NCBI GenBank assembly: GCA_965223855.1
Contig: CBDCXM010000009.1
Coordinates: 336,142-400,141 of the forward strand
DNA length: 64,000 bases
Source of the DNA: Candidatus Multivoradales bacterium
Lineage (GTDB): Bacteria > Acidobacteriota > Thermoanaerobaculia > Multivoradales > JAHEKO01
Direction: 5' to 3'
Below, in pieces: positions 16,521 through 40,465 of the stretch. Position numbers and translations under genes: made by a program. Positions within the stretch are counted from its first letter, which is position 1; every line of letters begins with the position of its first letter. The notes under the pieces are model-generated. The model saw nothing but the letters and a program-made list of their open reading frames with translations. It was not told where the DNA came from and made no database searches.

Positions 16521-16548
16521 CCGCCGGCCGATCGACAAGGAAGCCGCG

Positions 16549-21151: not shown

Positions 21152-22280
21152 CGTCGATGGTCAAGCGTACATCCCATCGGGTGAAGCGAGCCCGAATGTT
21201 GCCTTGGGAACTTGGCCAGTTCGTGAGCCTGAGGGTCCATGGGCCGTCCGCTACCGTGCCTACGAAGACATTGTCTAGCAGCACCAATGGCGTCAGCTCG
21301 TCCTGGTCGTAGGCAACTTGGAGCTCGTCAGCCGGCTCGAAGTCTTTCAGGAGAATCGACTGACCCTGAGGTCCTGTCAGGGCAACGGAGAATCTCGTAT
21401 CCGCCGGCACACTGAAGCCGCGAAGCAAATAGACATCAGCGTCTGAAACCGTGCCGCCGATCGGATCTGATGCGAACGTCAGTGTCGCCTCGGCCCACTC
21501 TCCGGGCTCGAGCACGCCCTCGTTCATCGAGGATGTCTCGATCTGCCTCAGATGGTCGAACTTCACGTTCTGTGTCCGCCTGAACGTAGGGAATCCTGAG
21601 TCGTCCGAGGCCACCTCGATCTGCGCCGTCCTCACGATGGGGCAGTCCTCGGTGTCGTCGAAGGTCATCGCGATATCGACCGGAGGCTCGGGCGCATCGA
21701 CCGGGGGCAGCGTGTGCGTTGAAGGCGAGGTCGCCGGGACGTTGTCGAAGAGAATCCATCCCGCACCGCCAGCCGAGAGGGTGACGTCCTGCGGCACGAT
21801 CCATCGGTTTCTCGGGTCGTAGGTGATCTGCGTTCCGGTGGGAAGGCCAAGGCCACCGTCTCCAGTCAGGTCTTTCGGTACAGAAAGTGTGAAGCCCTCT
21901 GTACCGACGAACACCCGATGGAGGATCGGTTCCCGAGTCTCGTAGGTGTAGTCAAAAAAAGCCAACGTTTCTTCGAAGACACCCGGACCCAGGCTGATGT
22001 TGTTGTTGGGCGCCACCTCGAGACTCACCTCCTGCCCCTCCCCTAGTGTGCCCGAAGTGGGCCCGCTCACCACATCGAAGAAGCTCGTGATCGGCTGGGG
22101 GTGAGACTTGACTTCCCATGGGAGCGGTGTGCCATCCGGAGTCCCGTCGAACGGCACGGCAACGTCGAAGGTCAGACCCGGGAAGTCGCTGGCGTCAGTA
22201 GGAGGGCCGTAGAACTCTGCTACGGGTCCGCTGAAGCTCTGATTCACCTGAATCCCGAGCGCAGGGATCGTTGTGTTCAT
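21132..22280 (-). CDS. hypothetical protein, possible proprotein-convertase P-domain-like C-terminus
   Basis: 382 aa with no obvious signal peptide. C-terminal GPWTLRLTNWPSSQGNIRARFTRWDVRLT resembles the P-domain consensus. 20-nt overlap with the downstream FG-GAP gene. Low GC. Confidence 0.4.
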   Translation of the reverse strand: MNTTIPALGIQVNQSFSGPVAEFYGPPTDASDFPGLTFDVAVPFDGTPDGTPLPWEVKSHPQPITSFFDVVSGPTSGTLGEGQEVSLEVAPNNNISLGPGVFEETLAFFDYTYETREPILHRVFVGTEGFTLSVPKDLTGDGGLGLPTGTQITYDPRNRWIVPQDVTLSAGGAGWILFDNVPATSPSTHTLPPVDAPEPPVDIAMTFDDTEDCPIVRTAQIEVASDDSGFPTFRRTQNVKFDHLRQIETSSMNEGVLEPGEWAEATLTFASDPIGGTVSDADVYLLRGFSVPADTRFSVALTGPQGQSILLKDFEPADELQVAYDQDELTPLVLLDNVFVGTVADGPWTLRLTNWPSSQGNIRARFTRWDVRLTIDDGTVCP

Positions 22281-25003: not shown

Positions 25004-26404
25004 TCAGTCCCCCCGGGTCTCGCGCTCCTGGAAGCGCTCGGCGAGCGAGCGCAGGAAACCGCTGACCCACGGCTTGATGGCGTCGAGCTCCTCGAGCAGC
25101 TGGTCGCGGCTGACCCGCTCGACGACCGTCTCTTCGAGCGTCACGACGCTCGCGGTGCGCGGCTCCGAGGTCATGATCGCCGTCTCGCCGAAGCACTCGC
25201 CCGGCCCGATGGTGCGGAGCGACACCTTCTCCCCGTCGATCTCCTTGAACACCTCGCACGAGCCGCTGGCGATGATGTAGGCGTGCTCGCCGGGGTCCCC
25301 CTCCCGCATCAGCAGATGCCCCGCCTCGAAGGTCTCGAGCGGCAGGCTGCCGCCGCGCATGAAGCCGACGATGTCCTGACGCAGCTCGACGACCGTCTGC
25401 TGCCTGTCCTCGGGTTTGCGCGCCATCGCTTTCTCGAGGATCCGCACCAGCTCGCGCGGTGCTCCGGCATCGTCCGGCAGCGGGGTGAAGTGGCGCTGGC
25501 GGGCCCGCAGGATCACCGTCTCGCTGGTGCGCCCCTCGTAGGGCGGCCGGCGGGCGACGAGGAAGTAGAGCATCGCGCCGACGGCGAAGATGTCCGCCCG
25601 GGCGTCCATCTCTCCCCCGGCCGCCTGCTCGGGCGACATGTAGCCCGGGGTACCGATGACCCTCCGCCCCCAGATCCGGGTGAACGTGCTCGACACCGGG
25701 TCGTCGATCTTCGCCAGCTCGCCGTCGGGGTCCGCCAGCCTCGCCAGCCCCCAGTCGACCAGGTAGACCTCGCCGAACTCCCCCACCATGACGTTCTCCG
25801 GCTTGACGTCGCGATGGACGACCCCTCGCTTGTGGGCGAAGGCGAGGGCGTTGCAGACCTTGACGACCACCTCCAGGAGGTCGAAGAGGGCGCCCCGCTC
25901 GATCGGCCCGGGCGGCAGCTCACGGACGAGCTCGGCGTAGGTCCGCCCCTCGAGGAGCTTCATCGTGAAGTGGAGCCGCCCGTCCTCGGTCCTTCCCAGA
26001 TCGTGGACCGGCACGATGTTGGGATGCTGCAACTGACCGGTGATCTGAGCCTCCCTCAGGAACGACTGGACCGCCTGGCGTTCGTCCTCCATCTCCGTCC
26101 GCAAGAGCTTCCGCGCCAGCCGGCGCCTCAGGGTGCGGTCGTGCAGCAGCTCGACGATCGCCATCCCGCCGCTGCCGATCTCCTCGCCCGTCTCGAAGCG
26201 CTCCTCGTCAGGCGGCAGGACGTTGGCCACCAGATCCGCCTTCGCCCGTTCGTCGAGCCGTTCCGGGGGGTCGTCGCGGGAACCGAGGAGACGCTTGAAC
26301 CAACCCTTCCGCGCACCGGAACCCTCCACGCGCGTCCCCTCGAGCACGGTCGCCGTACCGCCGTGTGTGCCCGATCCGGAACCGCTGGAGCGACCTTTCG
26401 TCAC
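25004..26404 (-). CDS. Ser/Thr protein kinase with C-terminal cyclic-nucleotide-binding (CAP-like) domain
   Basis: Kinase subdomains (GSGGMAIV, HRDVKPEN, DWG, GTPGYMSPE), then a cNMP-binding domain (FGETAIM...RTASV). GTG start. Confidence 0.75.
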   Translation of the reverse strand: MTKGRSSGSGSGTHGGTATVLEGTRVEGSGARKGWFKRLLGSRDDPPERLDERAKADLVANVLPPDEERFETGEEIGSGGMAIVELLHDRTLRRRLARKLLRTEMEDERQAVQSFLREAQITGQLQHPNIVPVHDLGRTEDGRLHFTMKLLEGRTYAELVRELPPGPIERGALFDLLEVVVKVCNALAFAHKRGVVHRDVKPENVMVGEFGEVYLVDWGLARLADPDGELAKIDDPVSSTFTRIWGRRVIGTPGYMSPEQAAGGEMDARADIFAVGAMLYFLVARRPPYEGRTSETVILRARQRHFTPLPDDAGAPRELVRILEKAMARKPEDRQQTVVELRQDIVGFMRGGSLPLETFEAGHLLMREGDPGEHAYIIASGSCEVFKEIDGEKVSLRTIGPGECFGETAIMTSEPRTASVVTLEETVVERVSRDQLLEELDAIKPWVSGFLRSLAERFQERETRGD

Positions 26405-26507
26405 CGGCGAATCGTATCAACGGCTTCGCCCCACGACTGTGGCAAACGAGGCTTCTCTCGCGACCTGCGCCAGGTCGTCGTCTCCCCGTCTCGTAACATG
26501 GCCGACA

Positions 26508-28685
26508 GTGAAGAAACGAGCCAAGGCCGGGGCTCCGAGCGCCCTGCGCGACTGGGCGCCGGTGGGCCTTTCGCTGGTGCTCCTCGTCGCCGCTATCGTC
26601 GCGACGGTCGCCGAGCCGACCGCGATGACGACCCTGCGTCACGCGGCGTTCGACGCCTACCAGCGCCTGCAGCCCCGCGAGTACCGGCCGGCCCCGGTGC
26701 GGGTGATCGACATCGACGAGGAGAGTCTCGACCGGCACGGCCAGTGGCCGTGGCCGCGGACGACGCTCGCCACGTTGATCGAACGGCTCGACGAAGCCGG
26801 AGCGCGCTCGATCGCCCTCGACGTCATGCTCGCCGAGCCGGACCGCACCTCGCCACAGCTCGCGCTCGAGAGTTGGGCCGCGGACCCGGCCGTCCGGGAC
26901 CTGGTGGCGCGCCTGCCCGATCACGACGAGGCTCTCGAGAAGAGGCTCGCCGCCTCGCCGGTAGTCACCGGCTTCATCCTCGATCAGGAGACCCAGGGAG
27001 AGACGCCGCTCGAGAAGGGGAGGATGGTGCTCGCCGGCGATCCGGCCGCCGCCTTCCTGCCGCCGTTTCGCGGTGCCGTCACCTCTCTGCGAGCGTTCGA
27101 GGCCGCGGCGGCGGGCAACGGTGCCCTCAACATGATCCCGAGCAACGACGGCATCGTCCGTCAGCTGCCCCTGTTGCTCGGCCACGGCGGAGCGGTGCGG
27201 CCCGGTCTGGCCGCCGAGGCTCTGCGGGTCGCCGAGGGCGCCGACAACTACGTCGTCAAGGCGTCGGGGGCGAGCGGCGAGGGGCGCTTCGGCGGCCGCA
27301 CCGGCATTGTCAACGTGCGGATCGGCGACCTCGAGCCGATCGTCACCGACGCGCGCGGCGCTGTCTGGCTCCACTACTCGGACCCGGTCCCCGAGCGCAC
27401 GCTCCCGGCCTGGAAGGTGCTGGCGGGCGACGTCCCGGAAGGCGCTCTCGAAGGGGGCATCCTCTTCCTCGGCACCTCCGCCGCGGGCCTCCACGACCTG
27501 CGCCTCGACCCACTCGGCCGGATCGCCCCGGGAGCAGAGGTGCACGCCCAGGGGATCGAGCAGATCCTGCAGGGGACCTATCTGACGAGGCCCGACTGGG
27601 CGCGGGCGGCCGAGATCCTCTTCATGGTGGCGATGTGGTTCGTGCTCGTCGCGCTGATCCTGCGCTTCGGCGCGCTGCCGGCGGCGGTGATCGGCATCGC
27701 GACGATCGCCGCCGCCTACCTCGGCTCGTGGTTCGCTTTCGATCGTCTGCGGCTGCTGCTCGATCCAACCTTTCCCTCGCTGTCGGCGCTGTCGATCTAC
27801 TTTGTCTGCTCGGTGGCGCAGCACTGGCGCGCGGAGCGCGATCGCACCTGGATCCGCGACGCCTTCTCGAGCTATATCTCGCCCAATCTCGTCCGGCACC
27901 TGATCGACAACCCCGGCGATCTCGCTCTCGGCGGCGAGCGACGCGAGTGCAGCTTCGTGATGACCGACCTCGAGTCGTTCACCACACTGGTCGAGAACCT
28001 CGAACCGACGGTCGCCGTCAGCCTGCTCAACGAGTACCTCGACGGCATCGTCGACATCGCGCTGGCGCGCGACGGCACCATCGACCGCATCGTCGGCGAC
28101 GCGGTAGCGGTGATGTTCTCGGCGCCGGCGGTGCAGCCCGACCACGCCGAACGCGCCGTCGCCTGCGCCCTCGAGATCGACGCGTTCGCCCGGCGCTTCA
28201 GCGCCGCCAGGGGCGAGCAGGGGGTCGAGGTCGGGCGGACGCGGATCGGCGTCAACACGGGCGTCGTCACCGTCGGCAACGTCGGCGGCGACCGGATCGT
28301 CGACTATCGTGCCCTCGGCGATCCGGTCAACACGGCCGCACGCCTCGAGACGGTCAACCGACACCTCGGTACCAACGTCTGCGTGAGCGCGGCGACCGTC
28401 GCCGCCTGCCCCGACTTCCACGGCCGCCCGATCGGACGCCTCCTGCTCAAGGGGAAATCCGAGGCGGTCGAGGCGTTCGAGCCGCTGTCGCGGGAAGAGG
28501 CGGCGGGGGCTTCGAACACGGCCTATCTGCGGGCGTTCGCCCTGATGGAGGAGGAGGCGGCGGAGGCCCCCGCCGCCTTCGACCGACTGCGGCAGCAACA
28601 CCCCGACGACCCCCTGGTCGCCCTCCACGCCGATCGCCTCGCCGCCGGCGAGACCGGCTCGACCATCGCCTTCTCCGAGAAGTAG
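26508..28685 (+). CDS. CHASE2 sensor-domain adenylate/guanylate cyclase
   Basis: GTG 26508 (alternative ATG about 110 nt downstream). N-terminal TM, periplasmic CHASE2-like domain, three TM helices, class III cyclase domain (FVMTDLESFT, RIGVNTGVVTVGNVG). The ORF-track start at 26133 is antisense to the kinase gene. Confidence 0.75.
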   Translation: MKKRAKAGAPSALRDWAPVGLSLVLLVAAIVATVAEPTAMTTLRHAAFDAYQRLQPREYRPAPVRVIDIDEESLDRHGQWPWPRTTLATLIERLDEAGARSIALDVMLAEPDRTSPQLALESWAADPAVRDLVARLPDHDEALEKRLAASPVVTGFILDQETQGETPLEKGRMVLAGDPAAAFLPPFRGAVTSLRAFEAAAAGNGALNMIPSNDGIVRQLPLLLGHGGAVRPGLAAEALRVAEGADNYVVKASGASGEGRFGGRTGIVNVRIGDLEPIVTDARGAVWLHYSDPVPERTLPAWKVLAGDVPEGALEGGILFLGTSAAGLHDLRLDPLGRIAPGAEVHAQGIEQILQGTYLTRPDWARAAEILFMVAMWFVLVALILRFGALPAAVIGIATIAAAYLGSWFAFDRLRLLLDPTFPSLSALSIYFVCSVAQHWRAERDRTWIRDAFSSYISPNLVRHLIDNPGDLALGGERRECSFVMTDLESFTTLVENLEPTVAVSLLNEYLDGIVDIALARDGTIDRIVGDAVAVMFSAPAVQPDHAERAVACALEIDAFARRFSAARGEQGVEVGRTRIGVNTGVVTVGNVGGDRIVDYRALGDPVNTAARLETVNRHLGTNVCVSAATVAACPDFHGRPIGRLLLKGKSEAVEAFEPLSREEAAGASNTAYLRAFALMEEEAAEAPAAFDRLRQQHPDDPLVALHADRLAAGETGSTIAFSEK

Positions 28686-29540: not shown

Positions 29541-30215
29541 TCAGCGCACCCTGACGACGACCCTGCGATTCCGCGGTTCGCGCACCCCGTCTCCCGTCGG
29601 CACCGCCGGTTGCGATTCACCGAACGCCTCGATGGCGATCGCCGCTGCAGGGACACCGGCCTCGATCAGCCTGTCGCGCACCGCTTCGGCCCGTCGCCGC
29701 GACAGGCCGTCGTTGAGCGTCTCGGTCCCCGAAGTGTCGGTGTGACCGGCCACCCGGATCGCCGCAGTCGCACGCTGTCGGAGGTCTTCGAGCAGCTCGT
29801 CCATCGCCCCGTCCGCCCCGCCCGCCAGCCGGGTCGTGCCGAGCTCGAAGAGGACGGTCCAGTCCGTCGGAGCGGGAGGCTCGTGCTCGATCGCCGGAGA
29901 AAAGCCGAGCTCGAGCCCGTCGACCTCCACCGTGCGGATGTCACTCAGATCGTCGAAGGAGACCGCCTCGTAGGCGGAGTCGAGCAGCGCGCTCTCGCCG
30001 TCGCGCGTCACTTCGATCGCGCCGACAGTGCCGTCCTCGTCGGGCAGCAGGACGACGTACTGGCGCCATTCGGGCTCCTCCTCGACCGGCTCTTCGCCAC
30101 CAAGGAGCGGCAGCACCACCGAGTCAGGCGGCCACCAGTGGACCGGCACCCGCTGCGCGGCACAACCTGGAAGCAGGAGAGCTCCGATCAGCACGACCGC
30201 CCGCGCTCGGTTCAT
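29541..30215 (-). CDS. OmpA-family peptidoglycan-binding lipoprotein
   Basis: Lipobox LLLPGC. C-terminal OmpA_C-like domain (RVAGHTDTSGTETLNDGLSRRRAEAV, NRRVVVRV). Confidence 0.65.
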   Translation of the reverse strand: MNRARAVVLIGALLLPGCAAQRVPVHWWPPDSVVLPLLGGEEPVEEEPEWRQYVVLLPDEDGTVGAIEVTRDGESALLDSAYEAVSFDDLSDIRTVEVDGLELGFSPAIEHEPPAPTDWTVLFELGTTRLAGGADGAMDELLEDLRQRATAAIRVAGHTDTSGTETLNDGLSRRRAEAVRDRLIEAGVPAAAIAIEAFGESQPAVPTGDGVREPRNRRVVVRVR

Positions 30216-30658
30216 TCGGCTGCGCTCTCCAACCTCACGAGAAATCGCGTGCCTCGGATCCCGATCGTGCCGACCGGGGTCTCCACGTTCGCCGATTCGG
30301 GCGACAGCTTGGCGATCAGGCCGGAGACGTAGAGCAGCGTGCCGCGGGCGAGGCGGGAGAGGAACGCCCCCTCGCTCGCACCCGCCTCGTAGACGTACTC
30401 GTCGATCGTGAGACTGGTGTCGGGGCCGATCGACAGTCGGGAGTCGTCGATGAACAGCACCCCCAGGGCGCCGTCGGATCCGGTCTCCAGGGTGTCGTCC
30501 TGGAACACCGCGGCGCCCAGCTCGGCAGCGCTGCGCTCCCCGCCCGACACGATGAAGGCACTTCCACTCAACTCCTTGACGTGGCCGACGGGCTCGGACG
30601 CCGCGACGGCACCGGCCGAGAGGACCACGAGAACCAACCAGAGACGGCGATGCATCAC
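30212..30658 (-). CDS. FecR-domain secreted protein
   Basis: Signal peptide. FecR-like beta-sandwich sequence (SGSAFIVSGGERSAAELGAAVFQDDTLETGSDGALGVLFID). ATGA overlap with the OmpA-like gene. Confidence 0.55.
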   Translation of the reverse strand: MMHRRLWLVLVVLSAGAVAASEPVGHVKELSGSAFIVSGGERSAAELGAAVFQDDTLETGSDGALGVLFIDDSRLSIGPDTSLTIDEYVYEAGASEGAFLSRLARGTLLYVSGLIAKLSPESANVETPVGTIGIRGTRFLVRLESAAE

Positions 30659-30784: not shown

Positions 30785-32596
30785 ATGGCAGATATGGCAG
30801 GTCACACCACAGGCCGCGTCCTCCTCGCCATCGCGCTCGTCGCGGTGATGGCGCCCGCTGCCTGGTCCCAGGAGGAGACGGCGCCGGTCCGCACCGCCGA
30901 CGAGGAGCACGCGGCGCTCTTCCTCGAAGACCGCTTCCCGGCCGCCACGACCTGCGCCACCTGTCACCCCGACCACTACCGCGAGTGGTCGGTGTCGCCG
31001 CACGCCTACGCGCAGATGAGCCCCGTTTTCAACGCCATGCACGGGACGATTCTCAAGCTGACCAACGGCACGAACGGCGACTTCTGCATCCGCTGCCACA
31101 CGCCGGTGGGGATGAACCTCGGCGAGCCCGAGTTCATGAGCAACATGGACCGCCACCCGACCTCGCGGGAAGGGGTCACCTGCATCGTCTGCCACCGGGT
31201 CAATCGCGCCTACGGCAAGCTCAGCGGACGGCTGGCGATCGTCGAGGGCGACGTCTTCGACACCGTCTACGGACCGACCGGAGGCGAGGAGCTCGAGCGG
31301 GTGATCGACAGCTCCGAGTTTCGCGTCAACACCGAGCGGGGGCAGGCCGGGCGGGCGATCCACGCCGAGGCGGAGCCGTTCTTCCAACTCCGAGAGGCGG
31401 GCATCTGCGGAACCTGCCACGACGTCAACCTGGTGAACGGCTTCCGTCTCGAGGAGGCGTTCAGCGAGTTCAAGACGTCACCGGCCGCGCGCCGGGGGGT
31501 GACGTGCCAGGACTGCCACATGGGGACGGAGCCGGGAATCGCCTCCGGGTTCCGCCAGGGGCCGGCGGCAATGATCGGCACCCGGCCGACCGCCGAGCGC
31601 CGGCTCACGAATCACATGTTCATCGGGCCGGATTACTCGATCGTCCACCCGGGGATCTTCCCGCACAACACCCGGGCCTCCGAACTGGCGACGATCCGCG
31701 ACTGGCTCCAGTTCGACTGGGAAGCGGGCTGGGGCACCGACGCCTTCGAGCTCGAAGCGCCGGAGGACTACGAGTTCCCCGAGGTGTGGGCCTCCGCCGA
31801 CGACCGCTACGACGCCCGCGACATCCTCGACGCCAACCTCACGCTGCTCGACGAGGCCAACCAGGCGCGCCTCCAGCTGCTGCGCGCCGGTTACGTTCTC
31901 GGGGACACGAAGGTCGAGAAGAAGGGTCGCGGGCTCGCCTTCTCGATCGAAGTCCGCAACGCCACCGACGGTCACGGCGTGCCGACCGGCTTCGACGCCG
32001 AGAGGCTCGTCTGGCTCGAAGTGACGGTCGCGGACGCGGACGGCGAGGTCGTCTTCCGCTCCGGCGATCTCGACCCGAACGGCGACGTGCGCGACCTGCA
32101 CTCCCTCTACGTCCACAACGGCGAGCTGCCTCTCGACCGCTACCTCTTCAGCCTCCAGTCGAAGTTCCTGACCCGGATGGTGCGGGGCGGCGAGCGCGAG
32201 CAGGTGCTGGCGATCAACTACTCGCCCGACCCTCTGCCGTTCCTGCGACCCTCGGTCACCTCGACGATCCTCACCGGGAGACCTCGCGGCGCCCGCAAGC
32301 ACAAGCAGAACCTCGCTCCGCTCGGTCACCGCGTGGCGCGCTACGAGGTGCCGGCGGCCAAGCTCACCGGGCGCCCGCCGTACCGGGCCACGTTCCGGCT
32401 CAAGGCGGCGATGGTGCCGGTGAATCTGGTCCACGAAATCAAGGACGTCGGGTTCGACTACTTCATGAGCGCTCGCGACGTCGCCGAGCGAGTGGTGGCA
32501 GGCCATCTCGTCCTCTGGGAACGACAGCTCGCCCTCGAAGACGGTGCCGAACCGCCCCAAGCCGAAGAAGCCGTGGATGCCGCCGCGTCGCCCTAG
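30785..32596 (+). CDS. multihaem c-type cytochrome, 5 CxxCH sites, periplasmic
   Basis: Signal peptide. CATCH, CIRCH, CIVCH, CGTCH and CQDCH were counted directly in the translation. Confidence 0.75.
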   Translation: MADMAGHTTGRVLLAIALVAVMAPAAWSQEETAPVRTADEEHAALFLEDRFPAATTCATCHPDHYREWSVSPHAYAQMSPVFNAMHGTILKLTNGTNGDFCIRCHTPVGMNLGEPEFMSNMDRHPTSREGVTCIVCHRVNRAYGKLSGRLAIVEGDVFDTVYGPTGGEELERVIDSSEFRVNTERGQAGRAIHAEAEPFFQLREAGICGTCHDVNLVNGFRLEEAFSEFKTSPAARRGVTCQDCHMGTEPGIASGFRQGPAAMIGTRPTAERRLTNHMFIGPDYSIVHPGIFPHNTRASELATIRDWLQFDWEAGWGTDAFELEAPEDYEFPEVWASADDRYDARDILDANLTLLDEANQARLQLLRAGYVLGDTKVEKKGRGLAFSIEVRNATDGHGVPTGFDAERLVWLEVTVADADGEVVFRSGDLDPNGDVRDLHSLYVHNGELPLDRYLFSLQSKFLTRMVRGGEREQVLAINYSPDPLPFLRPSVTSTILTGRPRGARKHKQNLAPLGHRVARYEVPAAKLTGRPPYRATFRLKAAMVPVNLVHEIKDVGFDYFMSARDVAERVVAGHLVLWERQLALEDGAEPPQAEEAVDAAASP

Positions 32597-34022
32597 GGGC
32601 TTGCTGAGGAACCCTCGTGGGTCGCGCGCCGGCCTCATCTTCGCCGCCGCGACGCTGATGGCGACGGCGATCGGCGCCGCCGAGCCTCCCACCGAGGGAG
32701 ACGGCGAGAGCGCGAGCCGCCTCACCGACGAGGCGATCCCACTGCAGGTCGATGCGGTACCCGAGCGGCCGAAGCCGCCCCTCGAGCTCGGCGAACCGTT
32801 CCTCGGCACCGGCACCCTGCGCCCCGGCTTCCGACTGCCGACCGGCGCCGTGTGGCAGCCGGCGCTCGTCGCTTTCGGCTCCCTGAGGACCGCGGCCCAG
32901 AGCTTCGACTCCGGCGCCGGCAGGGTGAGCGAGCTCGTCGCCCGGTTGGACCTCTTCGCCAACCTTCAGCTCTCGGGAACGGAGCGCGTGGTCGTCGGCT
33001 TCCGGCCGCTCGACCGCGACGGTCGCTTCACCTCGTACGTCTTCTCGAGCGACGTCCCGGGGATCGAGGACGGGTCCCGCGACGAGTGGAACGGCGAGGT
33101 GACGAGCGTCTACTTCGAGGGAGACTTCGGCGAGATCTTCCCCAATCTCTCGAAGGACGACTTCAGCCGCACCGACGTAGGTTTCTCGGCCGGCCGTCAG
33201 CCGCTGATCTTCCAGGAAGGGATGCTGATCAACGACTCGATCGACGGCATCGGGTTGACCCGCAACACGCTTCAGCCGGGCAATCTGTCGAACTTCCGCG
33301 CCACGCTCTTCCTCGGCTTCGACGAGGTCGGCCGGCCCGACCGCATCGACGACGACGCGCGGCTCGTCGCGCTCCTGACCTCGACCGATACCAGGAGGTC
33401 GACCTGGGACGTCGATCTCGCGTGGGTGGAATCGCAGGTCGAGGGAGACCTCCTGGCCGGCGGGATCAGCGCGATTCAGAGACTCGGGCACTACAACACC
33501 GCGTTTCGACTGCTCGGCTCTTCAGCCCTCGACCGGGAAAGCGACCTCGTCTCCGACGGCTGGCTGCTGCTCAACGAGGTGTCGTGGACGCCGCACCACA
33601 GCCACGACCTCGTCTACGTCAACACCTTCGTCGCCGCCGACCGCTTCTCGTCCGCGGCGCGCGGGCCGAGCACCGGAGGCCCGCTCGGGCGCGCGGGCAT
33701 CAACTTCGCTGCCGTCGGGCTGGGCAACTACGGCGCGGCGCTGAGCTCGGAGGCCGAGGACGTCGCCGGCGCGGCGGTCGGCTACCAGCGCTTCTTCGAT
33801 CACACCCGCAAGCAGCTCCTCGTCGAGGCTGGCGCGCGTCTCGGCACCCGTTCCGGGAGCGCCGACTCCGCCGCCGTCACCGTGCGGTTTCAGACCGCGC
33901 TCAAGCGCCACTACGTGCTGGTGCTCGATGCCTTCGGCGGCTACCGCGACCCGGGACCCGCAGCACCCGGCGGCCGGCAGGAGCTACTCGGTGCGCGGGT
34001 CGAACTGGTGACGAAGTTCTGA
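32577..34022 (+). CDS. outer-membrane beta-barrel (porin-like) protein
   Basis: ATG 32577 (alternative GTG 32544). N-terminal signal peptide. Alternating amphipathic strands. C-terminal residue is Phe (TKF), as in bacterial OMPs. Overlaps the upstream cytochrome by 20 nt and the downstream one by ATGA. Confidence 0.55.
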   Translation: MPPRRPRGLLRNPRGSRAGLIFAAATLMATAIGAAEPPTEGDGESASRLTDEAIPLQVDAVPERPKPPLELGEPFLGTGTLRPGFRLPTGAVWQPALVAFGSLRTAAQSFDSGAGRVSELVARLDLFANLQLSGTERVVVGFRPLDRDGRFTSYVFSSDVPGIEDGSRDEWNGEVTSVYFEGDFGEIFPNLSKDDFSRTDVGFSAGRQPLIFQEGMLINDSIDGIGLTRNTLQPGNLSNFRATLFLGFDEVGRPDRIDDDARLVALLTSTDTRRSTWDVDLAWVESQVEGDLLAGGISAIQRLGHYNTAFRLLGSSALDRESDLVSDGWLLLNEVSWTPHHSHDLVYVNTFVAADRFSSAARGPSTGGPLGRAGINFAAVGLGNYGAALSSEAEDVAGAAVGYQRFFDHTRKQLLVEAGARLGTRSGSADSAAVTVRFQTALKRHYVLVLDAFGGYRDPGPAAPGGRQELLGARVELVTKF

Positions 34023-36061
34023 TGGCGGCCGCCCGCCTCCTCGGCCCGGCGGTGGCCGGTCTGCTCGCGATCGGCCCGGTGGCGGCGGCCGAGACCCCGG
34101 CGGCGCGCGACCCGGCGAAGATCGTCACCGCCGAGGCGTGCGGCGAGTGCCATCTCGAGGAGTTCGAGGTGTGGAAGACGACGCCTCACGCACTCGGCTT
34201 CAAGTCGCTCCACCGCAGCGCCGACGCTGAAGAGATCGCGCGCAAGATGGGTCATCGGCTCATCAAGCGCGACAGCCCCTGCCTCGAATGTCACTACACG
34301 ACGGCACTCGACGGCGAGCGCGAACGCGCGGTGTCGGGAGTGTCGTGCGAGTCGTGCCACGGCGCCGGCCGCGACTGGATCGAGGTACACAACGACTACG
34401 GCCCCGACGCCACCTTCGCCACCGAGACCGACGCCCACCGCGAGCAGCGAATCGCCGCCAGCCGAGCGGCCGGGATGCTGCGGCCGACCGACCTCTACGA
34501 GGTGGCCGCCAACTGCTTCGGCTGCCACACGGTGCCCAACGAGGAGCTCGTCAACGTCGGCGGCCACACGACGGGCAGCATCGGCTTCGAGCTGGTCGAG
34601 TGGTCGCAGGGCGAGATCCGGCATAACTTCGTCGCGGCGCAGCGGGGCGGGAGCAAGGAGAACGTCGAGCGCTCCGACGAGCGCAAGCGGCTGATGTACG
34701 TCGTCGGCCGATCGCTCGAGCTCGAGTACGCGCTGCGCGGACTCGCCAAAGCGACCGAGGACGGGGCCTACGCGAAGTCGATGATCCGCAAGGTTCGCAA
34801 CGCGGTTGCCGAGGTCGGCGACATCGCGGCGGTCACGACCCTCGCGCCGGTCAACACCATGACCGCCGCGGTGCGCGAAGCCCGGGTCAGCCAGGGGAAC
34901 GCAGCCGAGCTGCTGGCCGCCGCCGATCGGGTGAGCGCGGCGACCAGAGCGCTGCTCCGGGAGCCGGCCGGCGCGCAGGTGGCGGCCCTCGATCCTCTGA
35001 GACTCGGCCAGCCGCTCCCGGGGACGGATCAACTCGCCGAGGACGAGCGCGAGGGCCTCGAGGACCCCGTCGAGGGCGCGGCCGAGACCGTCCCGGCGGC
35101 CGTCGCCGCGGCGGCCGCACCCGGAGAGCCCGGCGCCACCACCGCCGGCGCCGGCAGCGGTCGGAGCGTGCCCGACTACGCTCGCAAGACCCGGCTGCGA
35201 CCGACCTCGCCGCACCGCACGATCGACGCCGGCGCGTGCAGCGGCTGCCACGAGGAGCAGAACGCCTGGTGGTTCGACGACCCTCACTACGCCGCCGCCG
35301 AGCCGTTTCACGAGGGCGATCCGAAGAACGCCCAGATCGCCCGGCTCTACGGGCTCGCGGCCGGCGAGGCGACCAGGGGAAACCAGCTGTGCATGGACTG
35401 TCACGGCACGGTCGTCACCGGCAAGGAGCGCCGCGAAGTGTGGGACGGGGTGAGCTGCCAGAGCTGCCACGGTGGCGCCGCCGACTACCTCGAGCCGCAC
35501 AAGGAAGGGGACGAGACGGCCGGAGATCAGCGCAGCGGCTACCTCGCCGCACTCGGTCTCGGCATGAAGGAGCTGCGTCGTCCCGAGGTGCGGGCGCGCA
35601 ACTGCGCGAGCTGCCACTACATCACCGACCCGCGTCTGATCTCCGCCGGGCACCCGACCGGCAGGGACTTCCGGATCGTCGAGCGGATGCCGCGGATTCG
35701 CCACTGGGAGCGGGCCGATCTCGACGCCTCCGCCCTCGAGAGCGCCTTCCGCGACGAGGTGGCACGGCGAGGAGCGATTCCCGAGGTTGTCCTCGCCTCG
35801 CTGCCGGCGGGAGAGTCGCCGCTCGCCGCCGCTGCGACGGCGACGCGGACCCGCCGCGCGGGAGGGGGCTCCCGCCCCGTCAGAGCCCTGCCGCCGCGAC
35901 AGCGACCGGTCGATCCGATCGCCATCCCGGACCCTGCGAGCGTCGGCCCGCTCGACCTCCCCCCCTTCGACCCTCCGGCGGACGACGCGCCGCTCGAGGA
36001 GGTCCTGGCGCTGATTCAGCAGCGACTCGCCCTCATCTACGAAAACGTTCAGGAGCCGTGA
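34022..36061 (+). CDS. multihaem c-type cytochrome, 8 CxxCH sites
   Basis: Signal peptide. CGECH, CLECH, CESCH, CFGCH, CSGCH, CMDCH, CQSCH and CASCH were counted directly. Confidence 0.75.
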   Translation: MAAARLLGPAVAGLLAIGPVAAAETPAARDPAKIVTAEACGECHLEEFEVWKTTPHALGFKSLHRSADAEEIARKMGHRLIKRDSPCLECHYTTALDGERERAVSGVSCESCHGAGRDWIEVHNDYGPDATFATETDAHREQRIAASRAAGMLRPTDLYEVAANCFGCHTVPNEELVNVGGHTTGSIGFELVEWSQGEIRHNFVAAQRGGSKENVERSDERKRLMYVVGRSLELEYALRGLAKATEDGAYAKSMIRKVRNAVAEVGDIAAVTTLAPVNTMTAAVREARVSQGNAAELLAAADRVSAATRALLREPAGAQVAALDPLRLGQPLPGTDQLAEDEREGLEDPVEGAAETVPAAVAAAAAPGEPGATTAGAGSGRSVPDYARKTRLRPTSPHRTIDAGACSGCHEEQNAWWFDDPHYAAAEPFHEGDPKNAQIARLYGLAAGEATRGNQLCMDCHGTVVTGKERREVWDGVSCQSCHGGAADYLEPHKEGDETAGDQRSGYLAALGLGMKELRRPEVRARNCASCHYITDPRLISAGHPTGRDFRIVERMPRIRHWERADLDASALESAFRDEVARRGAIPEVVLASLPAGESPLAAAATATRTRRAGGGSRPVRALPPRQRPVDPIAIPDPASVGPLDLPPFDPPADDAPLEEVLALIQQRLALIYENVQEP

Positions 36062-36062
36062 C

Positions 36063-37697
36063 GTGAGCGAGCCGTTCGAACCGGGCAAGACCGTGCTCAA
36101 GCAGATCGAGCAGTACGGCGACCGCTGGAGCGCCTACGGCGCGAGCGAGAGCATCGTCTCGATCTCCGACAGGCTCACCCTCGAGGAGATGAGGGAGATC
36201 GACGTCTTCTCCGACTACGACGACTCGTTCCTCGAGAAGATCCGCTCCGACGTCTCGGTGGCGGTGTGGAAGCCGGACTCGGTGCTGTTCGAGGAAGGGA
36301 GCTACATCGACCTCGCCTTCGTCGTCCTCGAGGGAGAGGTCGAGACCTTCGTCGCCGGGATCGGCAAGGGTGAAGCGACGCCGCAGCCGATCTTCGACGC
36401 CACACGCACCGTGCTGGGCGACGCCGAGACCACCCTGGCGGCCGAGCGCACCACACTGATGCCGACGCTCTCGCCGCCGAGGCGGGCGCCGAAGGAGATC
36501 ACGCTCCTCGCTTCGATGGACTTCGACATGCCGCGCGAAGGCACCGTGAGACTCGGCCCCGGCGAGGTGTTCGGCGAGATCGGCGCCCTGAGCGGCTGGC
36601 CTCAGTCGGTGACGGCACGGACCGTGACCGAGTGCCGTCTGGTGCAGATCCGGATCAACGCGCTCAGGCTGATGAAGCGCAAGTCCGCGGCACTCAAGGA
36701 GCGCCTCGACGAGCGCTACCGCGAGCGCTCGCTGAGCGCGCAGCTGCGGACGACGCCGCTCCTGAGGCGCTCGAGCCCGCTGGTGATCGAGGCGCTCAAG
36801 GACGAGGTCGAGCTCGTCTCCTGCGAGCCGGGAGAGACGGTGCTCACCCACGGCGACGAGCCCGACGCGCTCTATCTGGTGCGCTCCGGCTTCCTCAAGC
36901 TGCTGCAGCCGCTGGCCGACGGTCAGATCGCCGTCTCGTACCTGTCGAAGGGGATGACCCTCGGCGAGGCGGAGCTGCTGCTGCCCGAGATCGACGGCTG
37001 GCAGGTCAGCGCCGAATCGGTCGAGTACAGCGAGCTGGTGCGGATCCCGGCACCGGTCTTCGACAATCTCCTGCGCAACGAGCCGCTGATCGAAGCCGAT
37101 CTTTGGGCGTCGGCTCAGGAGCGCATCCGCGAGTCCGGCTTCGCGCGGCGGCACATCGGTCACGCGGAGTTCCTCCAGGAGGCGCTCGACACCGGGCTCG
37201 TTCAGGGCAACAGCATCCTGGTGATCGACCTCGAATCCTGCACCCGATGCGACGACTGCGTGCGCGCCTGTGCCGACACGCACGAGGGGCGCCCCCGCTT
37301 CGTGCGCGAGGGAGACAAGTACGCCAACCTCCTGATCGCCAAGTCCTGCTACCACTGCCGGGATCCGGTCTGTCTCGTCGGCTGCCCGACCGGCGCGATC
37401 CATCGCGCCGGGCTGAGCGATGTCGTCGAGATCGAAGACGAAATCTGTATCGGCTGCGCGAGCTGTTTCCGCAACTGCCCGTACGACGCGATCGTCATGC
37501 ACGAGACCGGCGACCTGTGGCCGGACGACATGATCCCGGTCGGGCTGCGAGGGCGCGATCGCCAGGTCGCCAGCAAGTGCGACCTTTGTGCCGACACCGG
37601 TCACGGGCCGGCGTGTGTCAGCAACTGCCCTCAGGGTTGCGCCTACCGGGTCGGATCGCTGGAGGAGTTCCAACGGCTGATGAGCGGGGAGAGCTAG
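36063..37697 (+). CDS. tandem cyclic-nucleotide-binding domains fused to a 2x[4Fe-4S] ferredoxin-type domain
   Basis: GTG start 1 nt after the cytochrome stop. Two CAP-like cNMP-binding segments (GEVFGEIGAL; LGEAELL). Cys clusters CTRCDDCVRAC, CYHCRDPVCLVGCP, CIGCASCFRNCP and CDLCAD. Confidence 0.7.
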   Translation: MSEPFEPGKTVLKQIEQYGDRWSAYGASESIVSISDRLTLEEMREIDVFSDYDDSFLEKIRSDVSVAVWKPDSVLFEEGSYIDLAFVVLEGEVETFVAGIGKGEATPQPIFDATRTVLGDAETTLAAERTTLMPTLSPPRRAPKEITLLASMDFDMPREGTVRLGPGEVFGEIGALSGWPQSVTARTVTECRLVQIRINALRLMKRKSAALKERLDERYRERSLSAQLRTTPLLRRSSPLVIEALKDEVELVSCEPGETVLTHGDEPDALYLVRSGFLKLLQPLADGQIAVSYLSKGMTLGEAELLLPEIDGWQVSAESVEYSELVRIPAPVFDNLLRNEPLIEADLWASAQERIRESGFARRHIGHAEFLQEALDTGLVQGNSILVIDLESCTRCDDCVRACADTHEGRPRFVREGDKYANLLIAKSCYHCRDPVCLVGCPTGAIHRAGLSDVVEIEDEICIGCASCFRNCPYDAIVMHETGDLWPDDMIPVGLRGRDRQVASKCDLCADTGHGPACVSNCPQGCAYRVGSLEEFQRLMSGES

Positions 37698-37700
37698 GCC

Positions 37701-38531
37701 TTGACTCACCGCCACCGCAGCGCGCGCCGGTCGAGGGCGGCCGTGATCGCGGCCTCCGTCGCCGCGCTCGCAGTGGTCGTCTACGTCGGCGGCGCGACCC
37801 TGTGGGAGGTGGCTCCGGGAACTCCGTTGAGCATCGGCTTCGGTGTCGCGGCGGCGATCCTCCTTCTCGGGGCAGCCCTCTACGGCGCGCGGCGGCGACT
37901 CGTACGCCTCGCCTCGCGACGCAGCCTCGGGACAGCCTCGAGCTGGCTCGCCTTTCATCTCTACGGCAGCCTCCTCTTCCTGCTGCTCGTGCACCTCCAC
38001 TCCGGCTTCGCCGTTCCGAGCGAAGGGGTGACCTGGTGGCTGTGGGCACTCTCCTGGTGGACGGTCGTCACGGGGGTCGCCGGTCGGCTGCTGCAACTGT
38101 GGATCCCCAGAGCGCTCGGCTCGGGCCTGTCGGTGGAGGTGCTCTACGAGCGCATCCCCGAGCTGATCGAGGAGCTGCGCGAACGGTCGGAGACTCTCGC
38201 CGCCACTTGCGACGAGTCGGTGCAGAATCTCTACTCCAACCAGGTGGCGAAGCAGCTCACGGGGCCGAGGCGCCGCTGGATCTACTTCGTCGATCCGGCC
38301 GGCGGAGCGCGGTCGCAACTGCGTGAGTTCGACTACCTGCGCACGATGCTGCCGCCGGAGGAGCAGGACAAACTCGATCGACTGGCGGGGTACCTGCGCA
38401 CGAAGCTCGAATTCGACGCTCACTACACCCTGCAGGGAGTGCTGCGCTCGTGGCTGTGGATCCACGTCCCGCCGTCGCTGGCGGTGCTCGCCCTGGTCAT
38501 CGTCCACGTCTTCGCGGTCACCTACTACTGA
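37701..38531 (+). CDS. integral membrane protein, putative dihaem b-type cytochrome (quinol-interacting subunit)
   Basis: TTG start 3 nt after the preceding stop. About 5 TM helices. Two helices each carry a His-x13-His pair (H86/H100 and H255/H269), the bis-His spacing seen in cytochrome b and NarI-type dihaem proteins. Confidence 0.45.
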   Translation: MTHRHRSARRSRAAVIAASVAALAVVVYVGGATLWEVAPGTPLSIGFGVAAAILLLGAALYGARRRLVRLASRRSLGTASSWLAFHLYGSLLFLLLVHLHSGFAVPSEGVTWWLWALSWWTVVTGVAGRLLQLWIPRALGSGLSVEVLYERIPELIEELRERSETLAATCDESVQNLYSNQVAKQLTGPRRRWIYFVDPAGGARSQLREFDYLRTMLPPEEQDKLDRLAGYLRTKLEFDAHYTLQGVLRSWLWIHVPPSLAVLALVIVHVFAVTYY

Positions 38532-38546
38532 TGGCGGACTCACACG

Positions 38547-40127
38547 ATGGCGGCTAAGCGTCGGCAGGGGAAGGGCTCCTACGGCCGCTGGCAACTGCCG
38601 GTGGCGAGGCGCTATCTCGTCCCGGGGTCGAGGGGGCGTCGGATGGTCCTGGCGGCCGCGCTCTTCGCGCTCATCCTGGCCGCGGTGGCGGCAGACTTCC
38701 GGCTGCGGCGCGGCAAGGCGCTCTCCAAGGGCGCGCTGTCGTCGCACCACGCCCTCCAGGAGCAGGACTGCGCCTCCTGCCACGTCGAGTTCGATGCGGT
38801 GAGCGACGACCGCTGCTCCTCGTGCCACGAGAAGTTCGGCGATCAGCTCGGCGTCTACACCTTCGCCGCTCACTACCTGTACCGGTCGACCGACTTCCAG
38901 CGCGTCGTCGCCTCGGAACACGAGCTGCCGTGCTCCTCCTGCCATCTCGAGCACGCGGGGCGCGAAGCTCAGATCACCCGCGTACCGGATTCGCGCTGTC
39001 TCGACTGTCACGAATACGGCGCCTTCGGCGACGACCACCCGGAGTTCGCCTTCGCGCGGGAGGAGGCCGCCGAGGCGGGCGGCCTGCACTTCCCTCACAT
39101 CGAGCACATTCGCGAAGTGATGGCGCAGCAGAACCTGCACGACGTCGAGCGGTCGTGCCTCTACTGTCATCGGCCGGAGGCGGACGGGCGCTCGTTCCAG
39201 CCGATCGAGTTCGATCTCCATTGCGACTCCTGCCACCTCACGACGACTACGGCGACGCCGCGGCTGCCGATCGCAGGAGAGGCGGGCGAGGAGGATGGTC
39301 CCGGAGTCGAGACGCTGGAAGCAATCCGCGCTCGCGGCGGCCCGGGCACGGAGTGGGCCTACTACACGAACCCCAACGAGTTCCGCCGCACCGGGCCGCG
39401 GATCCTCAAGTCGCCGCTGCATCACGAGGATCCATGGATTCTCGACAACCTGCGCCGGCTGCGGCGCGAGCTCTATCCCGACGCCGGGCTCGCCGACCTC
39501 CTGACCGCCTCCCCCGATGCCCCGGTGCATCGATTGAGCGAGGTCTACGGCGAGGCGATCGCCACCCTGCAGTCACAGGTCGACGGCCTGCGTGCCCGCC
39601 CCGAGCCGGAGATCCAACGTGACCTCGCGAAGCTCTCCGCGCTCCTGACCGAGGCGGAGCGGAGCCTCCTCGATCCCTATACCCCCCTCGACGAGACCGA
39701 GTTCCAGCTCGCCCTCGAGCGACCCGATCCGAATCTGTCGGCGGAGCAAGTCGACTCGATCGACCGCCTCGCCGACGAGCTGACGACGCCGTGCCGCCAG
39801 TGCCACATCGTCGAGAACGCCACCCTCGCCCGGGTCCAGACCGATCAGCGGACTCTCCTGAGCGCCGAGTTCGACCACCGCGCCCACATCCTCCAGCGGC
39901 GCTGTCTCGACTGCCATCGCGAGATCCCCGTACTCGAGCACCTGAACTCCCCCGAGCCGGTCGATCCCGCGATCGACAACGCCGGCATTCACAACCTGCC
40001 GCGCATCGAAGCGTGCCGGGAGTGCCACCAGCCGCGCCAGGTCTCGGACCGCTGCGTCACCTGCCACGTCTTTCATCCGGACAAGAACCGGCGATCGGAA
40101 CTGCTGCTCTACCTGGAGACCGGCTGA
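38547..40127 (+). CDS. membrane-anchored multihaem c-type cytochrome, 10 CxxCH sites
   Basis: N-terminal TM anchor (MVLAAALFALILAAVAADF). Ten CxxCH motifs were counted (CASCH, CSSCH x2, CLDCH x2, CLYCH, CDSCH, CRQCH, CRECH, CVTCH). Confidence 0.75.
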   Translation: MAAKRRQGKGSYGRWQLPVARRYLVPGSRGRRMVLAAALFALILAAVAADFRLRRGKALSKGALSSHHALQEQDCASCHVEFDAVSDDRCSSCHEKFGDQLGVYTFAAHYLYRSTDFQRVVASEHELPCSSCHLEHAGREAQITRVPDSRCLDCHEYGAFGDDHPEFAFAREEAAEAGGLHFPHIEHIREVMAQQNLHDVERSCLYCHRPEADGRSFQPIEFDLHCDSCHLTTTTATPRLPIAGEAGEEDGPGVETLEAIRARGGPGTEWAYYTNPNEFRRTGPRILKSPLHHEDPWILDNLRRLRRELYPDAGLADLLTASPDAPVHRLSEVYGEAIATLQSQVDGLRARPEPEIQRDLAKLSALLTEAERSLLDPYTPLDETEFQLALERPDPNLSAEQVDSIDRLADELTTPCRQCHIVENATLARVQTDQRTLLSAEFDHRAHILQRRCLDCHREIPVLEHLNSPEPVDPAIDNAGIHNLPRIEACRECHQPRQVSDRCVTCHVFHPDKNRRSELLLYLETG

Positions 40128-40465
40128 TGGGAGCGCGGCTGCTGTGCAAGACCGGCAAGCTGGAGGGGCTCGAGTTCTCGCTCGGCGAAGAGACGACCGT
40201 GGGTCGCCGCCGCTCGAGCGACGCGGTGGTCGACGCCCCCGGGGTTTCGGGCACGCACGCGACGATCCGCTGGTCGGAGGAGGGCGGCCGCTACGAGCTC
40301 GAGGACCTCGGCAGTACCAACGGCACCCTGCTCGACGGCGTCCCCGCCCAGGGCATCGAGCCTCTCGGGACCCTGCACGTCATCACCTTCGGGCGGCACC
40401 ACAGCTTCATCTTCGTGTGGGACGGCGCGACCCCGACCGGCACGACGAGCGCCGAGGAGGAGTAG
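40127..40465 (+). CDS. small FHA-domain protein
   Basis: ATGA overlap with the decahaem gene. FHA signature (TVGRRRSSDAVVDAPGVSGTHATI...DLGSTNGTLLDG). 112 aa. Confidence 0.6.
   Translation: MGARLLCKTGKLEGLEFSLGEETTVGRRRSSDAVVDAPGVSGTHATIRWSEEGGRYELEDLGSTNGTLLDGVPAQGIEPLGTLHVITFGRHHSFIFVWDGATPTGTTSAEEE

Follow-up and report, generated by a model that had tools for sequence, protein, structure and literature searches.

How electrons might cross the cytoplasmic membrane between a cytoplasmic iron-sulphur (FeS) protein and a multihaem cytochrome c is a question raised by a gene cluster in a 64,000-nucleotide stretch of Candidatus Multivoradales DNA (contig CBDCXM010000009.1, positions 336,142 to 400,141 of the forward strand; hereafter the window). 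In this cluster a gene for a small membrane protein, ptdF, is flanked by a gene for a cyclic nucleotide monophosphate (cNMP)-binding 4Fe-4S protein and a gene for a decahaem cytochrome, as in the definition of the ptd cluster. The arrangement was named ptdABCDEFG in a preprint (bioRxiv 10.1101/2023.11.21.568154), by prediction only and with a function that 'remains completely unknown'; PtdF was there called a 'ferric reductase-like' transmembrane protein, with no further analysis. Apart from this preprint, which noted the cluster and the general nature of the gene from prediction alone, our literature searches found no description of the cluster. We add evidence for four histidine ligands, the membrane topology of PtdF, a link to DUF4405, statistics on the conserved gene core, gene fusions, variants lacking PtdE and a count of four FeS motifs in PtdE. 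Judged from its sequence, PtdF is very probably a dihaem b-type cytochrome. On balance we favour the view that it acts as a transmembrane dihaem wire between cytoplasmic FeS clusters and periplasmic c-haems, loosely resembling NOX.

37701 to 38531, forward strand: ptdF-like gene; 276 amino acids (aa), predicted dihaem cytochrome b with five transmembrane (TM) helices; TTG start, alternative GTG start at 37743

Table S7 of the preprint (bioRxiv 10.1101/2023.11.21.568154) lists Sulfidibacter corallicola CP071793, with QTD51416 as PtdF. Over residues 4–276 the window protein shares 51% identity with a 276-aa open reading frame (ORF) of S. corallicola NZ_CP071793.1 (locus L010, 9986–10816), and the gene order around PtdF is the same in the window and at this locus. 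Gene order points to this ORF being QTD51416. On sequence grounds the window gene is a PtdF orthologue, because it shares both 51% identity and gene order with a genome listed in that table.

Histidine pairs and membrane topology of PtdF

The 276-residue translation contains histidines at positions 3, 5, 86, 98, 100, 241, 255 and 269 (codons checked). H86 and H100 are 14 residues apart, as are H255 and H269. The structure of PtdF was modelled with AlphaFold2 from an alignment of 120 sequences, giving a mean predicted local distance difference test (pLDDT) score of 93.3 and a predicted template modelling (pTM) score of 0.83. The model contains helices at residues 3–34, 42–66, 79–100, 109–140 and 219–275, and a smaller helical domain at residues 149–214. 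Hydropathy analysis with a 19-residue window detects TM1, TM2, TM3 and TM5; TM4, which is Trp-rich, lies under the cut-off and is needed by the topology. The segments referred to below, all on the forward strand, are as follows.

37827 to 37889, forward strand: TM2, residues 43–63, with near-invariant G48; proposed haem-packing helix
37935 to 38000, forward strand: TM3, residues 79–100, with H86 (37956–37958) and H100 (37998–38000); first H-x13-H pair
38025 to 38099, forward strand: TM4, residues 109–133, Trp-rich, with near-invariant G125 and G128
38100 to 38447, forward strand: TM4–TM5 cytoplasmic helical domain, residues 134–249, conserved; proposed docking surface for the FeS partner
38448 to 38525, forward strand: TM5, residues 250–275, with H255 (38463–38465) and H269 (38505–38507); second H-x13-H pair

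Translation and model together bear out the first-pass annotation of this DNA, which had placed two His-x13-His pairs on two TM helices: H86/H100 are on TM3 and H255/H269 on TM5. Lysine and arginine are abundant in the N-terminus and in the TM2–TM3 loop, both in the query and in the family (family means 2.9 and 4.0), and are close to zero in the short TM1–TM2 and TM3–TM4 loops. By the positive-inside rule, this distribution therefore indicates an N-in, C-out orientation. The periplasmic loops are only 8–9 residues long, according to model and hydropathy. With the topology given by the positive-inside rule, H86 and H255 are in the inner leaflet, 6–7 residues deep, and the outer leaflet has H100 and H269 at its outer end. 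H86 is thus at the depth of H255 and H100 at that of H269, all within helices, and the refuting condition named in the first-pass annotation, paired His on different membrane faces or outside helices, did not arise.

The same annotation had remarked on an unusually long loop between helices 4 and 5. Its length is real (residues 134–249), but it does not have the character of a loop: pLDDT exceeds 90 across most of these residues, and the family retains the consensus motifs SGLSxEVLYERIPEL, DITGG and KLEIDAHYTLQ. In the model this stretch is a conserved, ordered helical cytoplasmic domain of about 115 residues rather than a disordered loop. It may form the docking site for PtdE, the product of the gene upstream.

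A word-indexed search returned 175 PtdF homologues, and a search with the family profile returned 3231 representatives of 50%-identity clusters at E≤1e-3, or 1427 at E≤1e-10. A genome scan found carriers of the family in Acidobacteriota, KSB1, Bacteroidota/Rhodothermales, Nitrospirota, Myxococcota, Zixibacteria and other groups. Conservation was measured in 117 near-full-length representatives of 50%-identity clusters, most of them 20–50% identical to the query. Mean column identity across this set is 23%; H86 is conserved in 98%, H100 in 99%, H255 in 97% and H269 in 96%, and G48 of TM2 in 98%. Other near-invariant positions, in addition to G48, are G125, G128, P106, P136, D239, W251 and P257. 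H98 is not conserved. H241 was considered as a fifth core ligand and rejected; it is invariant in close relatives, yet only 51% conserved family-wide. The conservation moment of TM3 is at 333°, with H86 and H100 at 340° and 300°, and that of TM5 at 125°, with H255 and H269 at 140° and 100°. Because the moments fall between the angles of the histidines, the His-bearing faces are the conserved faces of TM3 and TM5. By these alignments, the four-histidine pattern exceeds chance.

Helices A and C of cytochrome b carry conserved glycines that pack against haem. The invariant small residues on the PtdF helices that bear no ligands recall this pattern and, by analogy, G48 on TM2 may likewise pack against a haem.

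PtdF compared with known dihaem cytochromes

The PtdF family is large and spread over many phyla, yet it has no Pfam model. The window protein gave zero matches in Pfam (at E≤1) and in NCBIfam. When PDB sequences were searched with the family profile at E≤10, no related protein and no cytochrome b was found; the lone match, Egalitarian, was discarded as a spurious coiled-coil match. A Foldseek comparison of the PtdF model with the PDB gave nothing significant (best E 0.26). We also scanned 118 family members singly against Pfam at E≤1. Sub-threshold matches to DUF4405 were present in 65 of the 118 (best E 2.3e-6), to Ni_hydr_CYTB in 29 (best E 1e-3) and to Ferric_reduct in 18 (best E 3.4e-6), and no Pfam family beyond these three occurred in more than 6. 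Those matches that we inspected span TM2–TM3. We take the three families to form one Pfam clan of dihaem cytochromes. Alignment of the PtdF profile by hhalign to lone Escherichia coli sequences of MsrQ, YodB, FdnI and NarI gave probabilities of about 1% or less (0.2% for NarI) and was uninformative as to kinship. By formal membership tests PtdF falls outside every named family examined, and its sequence is best described as that of a divergent five-TM branch of the dihaem cytochrome superfamily with a 115-residue cytoplasmic insertion.

Like DUF4405 proteins (PF14358), PtdF has four conserved intramembrane histidines. A DUF4405 protein with six TM helices and four central histidines has been purified and found to contain haem b by pyridine haemochrome, and passage of electrons through its histidine core, from one side of the cytoplasmic membrane to the other, has been proposed (PMC11334425). 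PtdF differs in having five TM helices and the 115-residue cytoplasmic insertion where DUF4405 has six TM helices. The partners also differ, being flavinylated extracytosolic proteins (in ApbE context) for DUF4405 and FeS and multihaem c proteins for PtdF. The window protein itself scores below the gathering score of the DUF4405 model, with no match at E≤1.

Cytochrome b and NOX-type ferric reductase domains likewise have a 14/14 histidine spacing on alternate helices. In NOX the haem-ligating pairs are on TM3 and TM5, with about 13 intervening residues. PtdF resembles the ferric reductase superfamily (NOX, STEAP, FRE, MsrQ; PF01794) in its N-in orientation and in having its His pairs on TM3 and TM5. 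In that superfamily an NAD(P)H/flavin module in the cytoplasm supplies electrons, which leave the cell by way of two stacked haems, and we propose the same path for PtdF. The ferric reductase domain has six TM helices, however, whereas PtdF has five and ends with TM5; the window protein has no Ferric_reduct (PF01794) match, and its hhalign comparison with the lone E. coli MsrQ sequence was not significant.

As in cytochrome b, the two H-x13-H pairs of PtdF are on alternate helices within a four-helix bundle. In other respects the protein is unlike cytochrome b of the bc1 and b6f complexes, with five TM helices against eight, other partners and no sequence match; the cytochrome b models of Pfam gave no match to it. 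The first-pass annotation had likened the spacing to that of both cytochrome b and NarI. The likeness to cytochrome b stands, and that to NarI is imprecise: in E. coli NarI the histidines are 56/66 and 187/205, on TM2 and TM5, hence 10 and 18 apart, whereas those of PtdF, on TM3 and TM5, have spacings of 14 and 14. PtdF is nevertheless functionally analogous to NarI, DsrM, HmeC and HdrE in its arrangement, a predicted five-TM dihaem b protein that would give electrons to, or take them from, a cytoplasmic multi-cluster FeS protein of the NarH/DmsB ferredoxin type. PtdF has no Pfam or NCBIfam match to the NarI/DsrM/HmeC family (PF02665), which also lies outside the 25 families recurrent in its relatives. 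NarI is a proven quinol oxidase, whereas quinol use by PtdF is only a hypothesis. FdnI, HyaC and CybB (PF01292) have four TM helices and quinone sites, with ligands on three helices (TM1, TM2 and TM4); PtdF has five TM helices and ligands on two. E. coli FdnI has histidines at 18, 57, 155 and 169, taken here as the ligands of its haems. Ni_hydr_CYTB (PF01292) gave no match to the window protein.

That no curated haem family matches PtdF, and that no solved structure is significant by Foldseek, would suit a protein without haem, which might hold PtdE and PtdG at the membrane as an anchor or scaffold, or bind or transport metal by means of its lining of histidines. We regard this as very improbable. 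Two in-register H-x13-H pairs, with invariant glycines on the intervening helices, are hard to explain without haem, and a mere anchor has no need of four invariant intramembrane histidines. The recurrent weak matches of the family are only to b-haem families, and the protein is encoded between an FeS wire and a decahaem cytochrome.

Redox partners encoded with PtdF

The two genes that flank ptdF are:

36063 to 37697, forward strand: ptdE-like gene; 544 aa, cNMP-binding domains and a C-terminal DmsB/NrfC-type ferredoxin (Pfam, NCBIfam)
38547 to 40127, forward strand: ptdG-like gene for a decahaem cytochrome c; 526 aa, 10 CxxCH motifs, Pfam cytochrome c7/c3, N-terminal membrane anchor

Window PtdE has no signal peptide. 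Its translation contains four Cys motifs with 16 Cys at residues about 383–540 (CxxCxxCxxxC, CxxCx4CxxxCP, CxxCxxCxxxCP and CxxCx8CxxxCP), a sequence pattern typical of four-cluster ferredoxins of the DmsB/NrfC/NarH type. The preprint assigned two 4Fe-4S clusters to PtdE (bioRxiv 10.1101/2023.11.21.568154), against the four motifs counted here. The anchor of PtdG was read as a hydrophobic N-terminal segment of the translation.

Synteny was determined in one genome per species by tblastn with the window proteins, counting loci with enough flanking sequence. PtdG is directly 3′ of PtdF at 65 of 69 loci, and PtdE directly 5′ at 59 of 69. An FHA protein is encoded 3′ of PtdF at 58 of 65 loci, and a Pyr_redox_2-FHA-[2Fe-2S] protein of 787–807 aa, which occupies the PtdC position in Sulfidibacter, at 45 of 50. 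PtdD was found at 46/57 loci, PtdA at 26/47 and PtdB at 26/49. These counts therefore define a conserved core of PtdE-F-G, the FHA protein and PtdC, to which the outer-membrane module is optional. The pattern extends to a distant clade, one of whose PtdF homologues (about 25% identity to the query) has histidines at 77/91 and 249/263, with a four-motif FeS protein encoded 5′ and a multihaem protein 3′.

At least three full-length PtdE–PtdF fusions were found, in which cNMP domains and four FeS motifs are followed by a linker of 25–40 residues and then TM1. Such fused cNMP-FeS-PtdF proteins are at locus L006 and in proteins P0122, P0159 and P0237. As the FeS part is fused to the N-terminus of PtdF, the FeS wire is therefore on the cytoplasmic face. 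In the window, ptdE and ptdF are in one reading frame, with a TAG and one codon between them (37695–37703), and loss of this TAG would yield a fusion such as those seen in other lineages.

About ten loci lack PtdE and retain PtdF–PtdG (L003, L017, L019, L021, L022, L026, L037, L040, L050 and L064), mostly from KSB1, Bacteroidota and unclassified metagenome-assembled genomes. The FHA protein and the flavoprotein-[2Fe-2S] protein are kept at most PtdE-less loci with enough downstream flank, so that PtdF usually retains a redox partner in the cytoplasm. At such loci PtdF may receive electrons straight from the [2Fe-2S] domain.

Direction of electron flow and the quinone pool

The near-invariant histidines, the bundle model, the weak matches to b-haem families, the synteny and the fusions all argue for PtdF as a dihaem b link. 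The proposal of the first-pass annotation that the protein is a dihaem b-type membrane subunit connecting the FeS and decahaem proteins is well supported by these sequence data, including the spacing and depth of the histidines.

In the mechanism that we propose, PtdF would be an N-in, five-helix inner-membrane protein to which TM3 and TM5 contribute two histidines each. One b haem, in the inner leaflet, would have H86 and H255 as its ligands, and the other, in the outer leaflet, H100 and H269; both would be bis-His ligated. Fourteen residues of helix extend about 21 Å, the usual distance between haems, and the two b haems would make a wire of roughly 20 Å across the membrane. On the cytoplasmic side PtdE, with four predicted [4Fe-4S] clusters and its cNMP domains, would dock on the domain at residues 134–249. 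The minimal periplasmic loops would leave the outer haem near the surface and within reach of membrane-anchored PtdG, with whose ten haems it could exchange electrons; PtdG would connect onward to the octahaem, porin-like and pentahaem proteins of the cluster. Such a wire would resemble that of NOX or of ferric reductases with the dehydrogenase detached and joined to it by FeS clusters. Flow would most likely be outward, from a cytoplasmic reductant to the periplasm and the cell surface. NAD(P)H would be this reductant in most relatives, by way of the Pyr_redox_2-FHA-[2Fe-2S] flavoprotein. The cNMP-binding and FHA domains suggest that the ptd system is regulated. The His pattern with its conservation, the positive-inside topology, the gene order, the fusions and the cofactor motifs are read from the sequences; that PtdF binds haem, where its partners dock, which way electrons run and that quinones are bypassed are features that we infer. 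Our estimates for the several readings overlap, flow direction being separate from quinone use, and are not intended to sum to one.

Dihaem wires are reversible, and Fdn-N and NarGHI run inward, conserving energy. On an inward path, electrons that the multihaem cytochromes had taken from donors in the periplasm or outside the cell would cross by PtdF and reach either PtdE and then cytoplasmic acceptors or, as in formate dehydrogenase-N, quinone on the cytoplasmic side. Such a path would build membrane potential. It would also suit electron uptake by some of the carriers, as the ptd cluster was noted in nitrite oxidisers and in bacteria transcribing sulfur-oxidation genes (bioRxiv 10.1101/2023.11.21.568154). 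We consider it improbable nonetheless. Reduction of FeS clusters or NAD(P)+ from the potentials typical of periplasmic c-haems would be uphill and against the membrane potential, and the conserved cluster encodes no cytoplasmic terminal reductase. Outward flow is favoured because inward flow to FeS or NAD(P)+ is uphill both in redox potential and electrically.

The first-pass annotation had further cast PtdF as quinol-oxidising, the link between the quinone pool and the FeS and decahaem subunits. Our analysis gave this role no support. A quinol dehydrogenase resembling NarI or cytochrome b, passing electrons from menaquinol or ubiquinol to the decahaem protein, the FeS protein or both, is in our estimate unlikely, if somewhat less so than inward flow. 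Quinone sites are common among dihaem b proteins of this architecture, such as NarI, FdnI, cytochrome b and CybB, and quinol is a reported electron donor to MsrQ. In PtdF, conserved polar residues lie at the cytoplasmic boundary by H86 and H255 (R64–R66, W82, K235, D239, Q245 and W251), and this cluster could be a quinone pocket instead of a site for haem propionates. PtdC is also missing from the window, so that some other donor is needed, such as the quinone pool. Several observations speak against such a role. Similarity to NarI is not detectable, Nitrate_red_gam is not among the 25 most frequent family matches of the relatives, and the histidine spacings differ as described above. A route from quinol to the periplasm needs only the outer haem, whereas the inner ligands and the cytoplasmic domain are equally conserved. 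A simple quinol:cytochrome c reductase would have no use for strict pairing and fusion with a four-cluster FeS wire in the cytoplasm, and periplasmic loops of 8–9 residues offer little material for a quinol site on that side. Because PtdE lacks a signal peptide, the fusions are N-terminal and a flavoprotein is encoded at most loci, a path from cytoplasm to periplasm that is independent of quinones is available.

Three points weigh against the outward wire that we favour. When the window was searched by tblastn with the 807-aa Pyr_redox_2-FHA-Fer2 protein no match was found in its 64 kb and, with no PtdC and a truncated FHA gene, the wire lacks an evident cytoplasmic donor here. Outward export of electrons from NAD(P)H would dissipate membrane potential, with no evident benefit. 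Finally, the sequence leaves room for a quinone site near either haem.

More tentatively, the PtdC-PtdE-PtdF-PtdG core could be a split, quinone-independent, NOX-like machine gated by the cNMP-binding domains of PtdE and by FHA domains, which bind phospho-Thr. Electrons would pass from NAD(P)H to FAD, to [2Fe-2S], to four [4Fe-4S] clusters, to two b haems and to ten c haems, and would continue through the outer membrane where PtdA, PtdB and PtdD are present. If this is true, such a core would permit the regulated export of cytoplasmic reducing power to the cell surface, bypassing the quinone pool, and export of this kind would be widespread in marine and sediment bacteria. To our knowledge, known Gram-negative routes to extracellular acceptors start at the quinone pool, with quinol dehydrogenases such as CymA, ImcH, CbcL and the NetBCD type. 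The Ptd core seems to offer another way in, with a chain of FeS and flavoproteins in the cytoplasm connected directly to a dihaem membrane wire. As the proposed membrane-crossing step, PtdF offers a testable handle, with four histidines in one small protein.

Translational start of ptdF

The fraction of G+C at third codon positions in the 37701–38531 ORF is 0.87, in the usual range for coding ORFs of the window. TTG 37701 is the earliest possible start past the in-frame TAG of ptdE. A Shine-Dalgarno-like sequence, read directly from the DNA, precedes it by 8–15 nt:

37686 to 37693, forward strand: GGGGAGAG, Shine-Dalgarno-like, within the 3′ end of the upstream gene

The database copy of PtdF (P0001) has 262 aa and begins at GTG 37743. 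On sequence evidence TTG 37701 is a plausible true start, because a start at GTG 37743 would cut off the Arg-rich N-terminus that is present in relatives. The TTG start of the first-pass annotation is thus plausible rather than proven, with GGGGAGAG and the retained N-terminus on its side and the database entry against it. The other conclusions on PtdF hold whichever start codon is right.

Other genes of the ptd cluster

The remaining ptd-like genes in the window are:

30785 to 32596, forward strand: ptdA-like gene for a pentahaem cytochrome c; 603 aa, 5 CxxCH motifs, Pfam Cytochrome_C554, NapC/NirT-like
32544 to 34022, forward strand: ptdB-like gene; longest ORF of 492 aa, without a Pfam match, C-terminal Phe
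34022 to 36061, forward strand: ptdD-like gene for a cytochrome c; 8 CxxCH motifs (4+4), two tetrahaem modules
40127 to 40465, forward strand: gene for an FHA-domain protein; 112 aa, one FHA domain (Pfam)

Counts of CxxCH motifs show that the pentahaem and decahaem genes of the cluster are present, together with an 8-motif (4+4) counterpart of the tetrahaem gene. The nearest relatives of the window cluster are from Thermoanaerobaculia, with 63–75% identity for PtdA and PtdE; window PtdA is 72–75% identical to its homologues at loci L010 and L023.

The ptdB product is called a porin in the preprint (bioRxiv 10.1101/2023.11.21.568154). At L010 the homologue of the 492-aa window protein is encoded by the second gene of the cluster, which is the PtdB position of the preprint, and the window protein is a putative porin-like protein. 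Its longest ORF shares its first 53 nt with the end of the pentahaem gene (32544–32596). The N-terminus of this ORF is Pro/Arg-rich, and homologues align only from about residue 31–52; the true start probably lies further downstream.

PtdD has 8 haem motifs in the window and 4 in the preprint. Its tetrahaem halves are joined by an Ala/Pro/Gly-rich linker of roughly 100 residues, and the 8-haem protein seems to have arisen when the 'tetrahaem' module was duplicated in tandem. The window also differs from the preprint cluster in lacking PtdC and in having only a single-domain FHA gene. FHA relatives at the loci compared (L010 and L023) are longer, at about 280–305 aa, and have a second FHA domain. 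In place of ptdC, MgtC and MarR genes in convergent orientation lie 3′ of the window FHA gene, and the window cluster looks trimmed at its 3′ end.

Transcripts of the ptd cluster were reported from ocean oxygen-deficient zones (bioRxiv 10.1101/2023.11.21.568154). For this window the outcome is sound annotation, not discovery. The gene belongs to a named, uncharacterised family.

Surroundings of the cluster

About 2 kb upstream of the ptd cluster, a forward-strand gene (26133–28685) encodes an 850-aa protein with CHASE2 and adenylate/guanylate cyclase domains. Between the two are OmpA-like (29541–30215) and FecR-like (30212–30658) genes, both on the reverse strand. A dedicated cNMP signalling link was considered and found no support in synteny: the CHASE2-cyclase, FecR, OmpA, MgtC and MarR genes are conserved beside no related ptd locus. 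The proximity of the cyclase to the cluster may be coincidental.

No tRNA gene and no Rfam match was found in the 64-kb window. Tandem genes for AcrB-type RND transporters of 1096 and 1063 aa are at 13230–16520 and 16450–19641 on the forward strand. The segment 20001–22000 has a GC content of 0.62, against about 0.68 elsewhere, and coincides with reverse-strand ORFs at 19826–21151 and 21132–22280.

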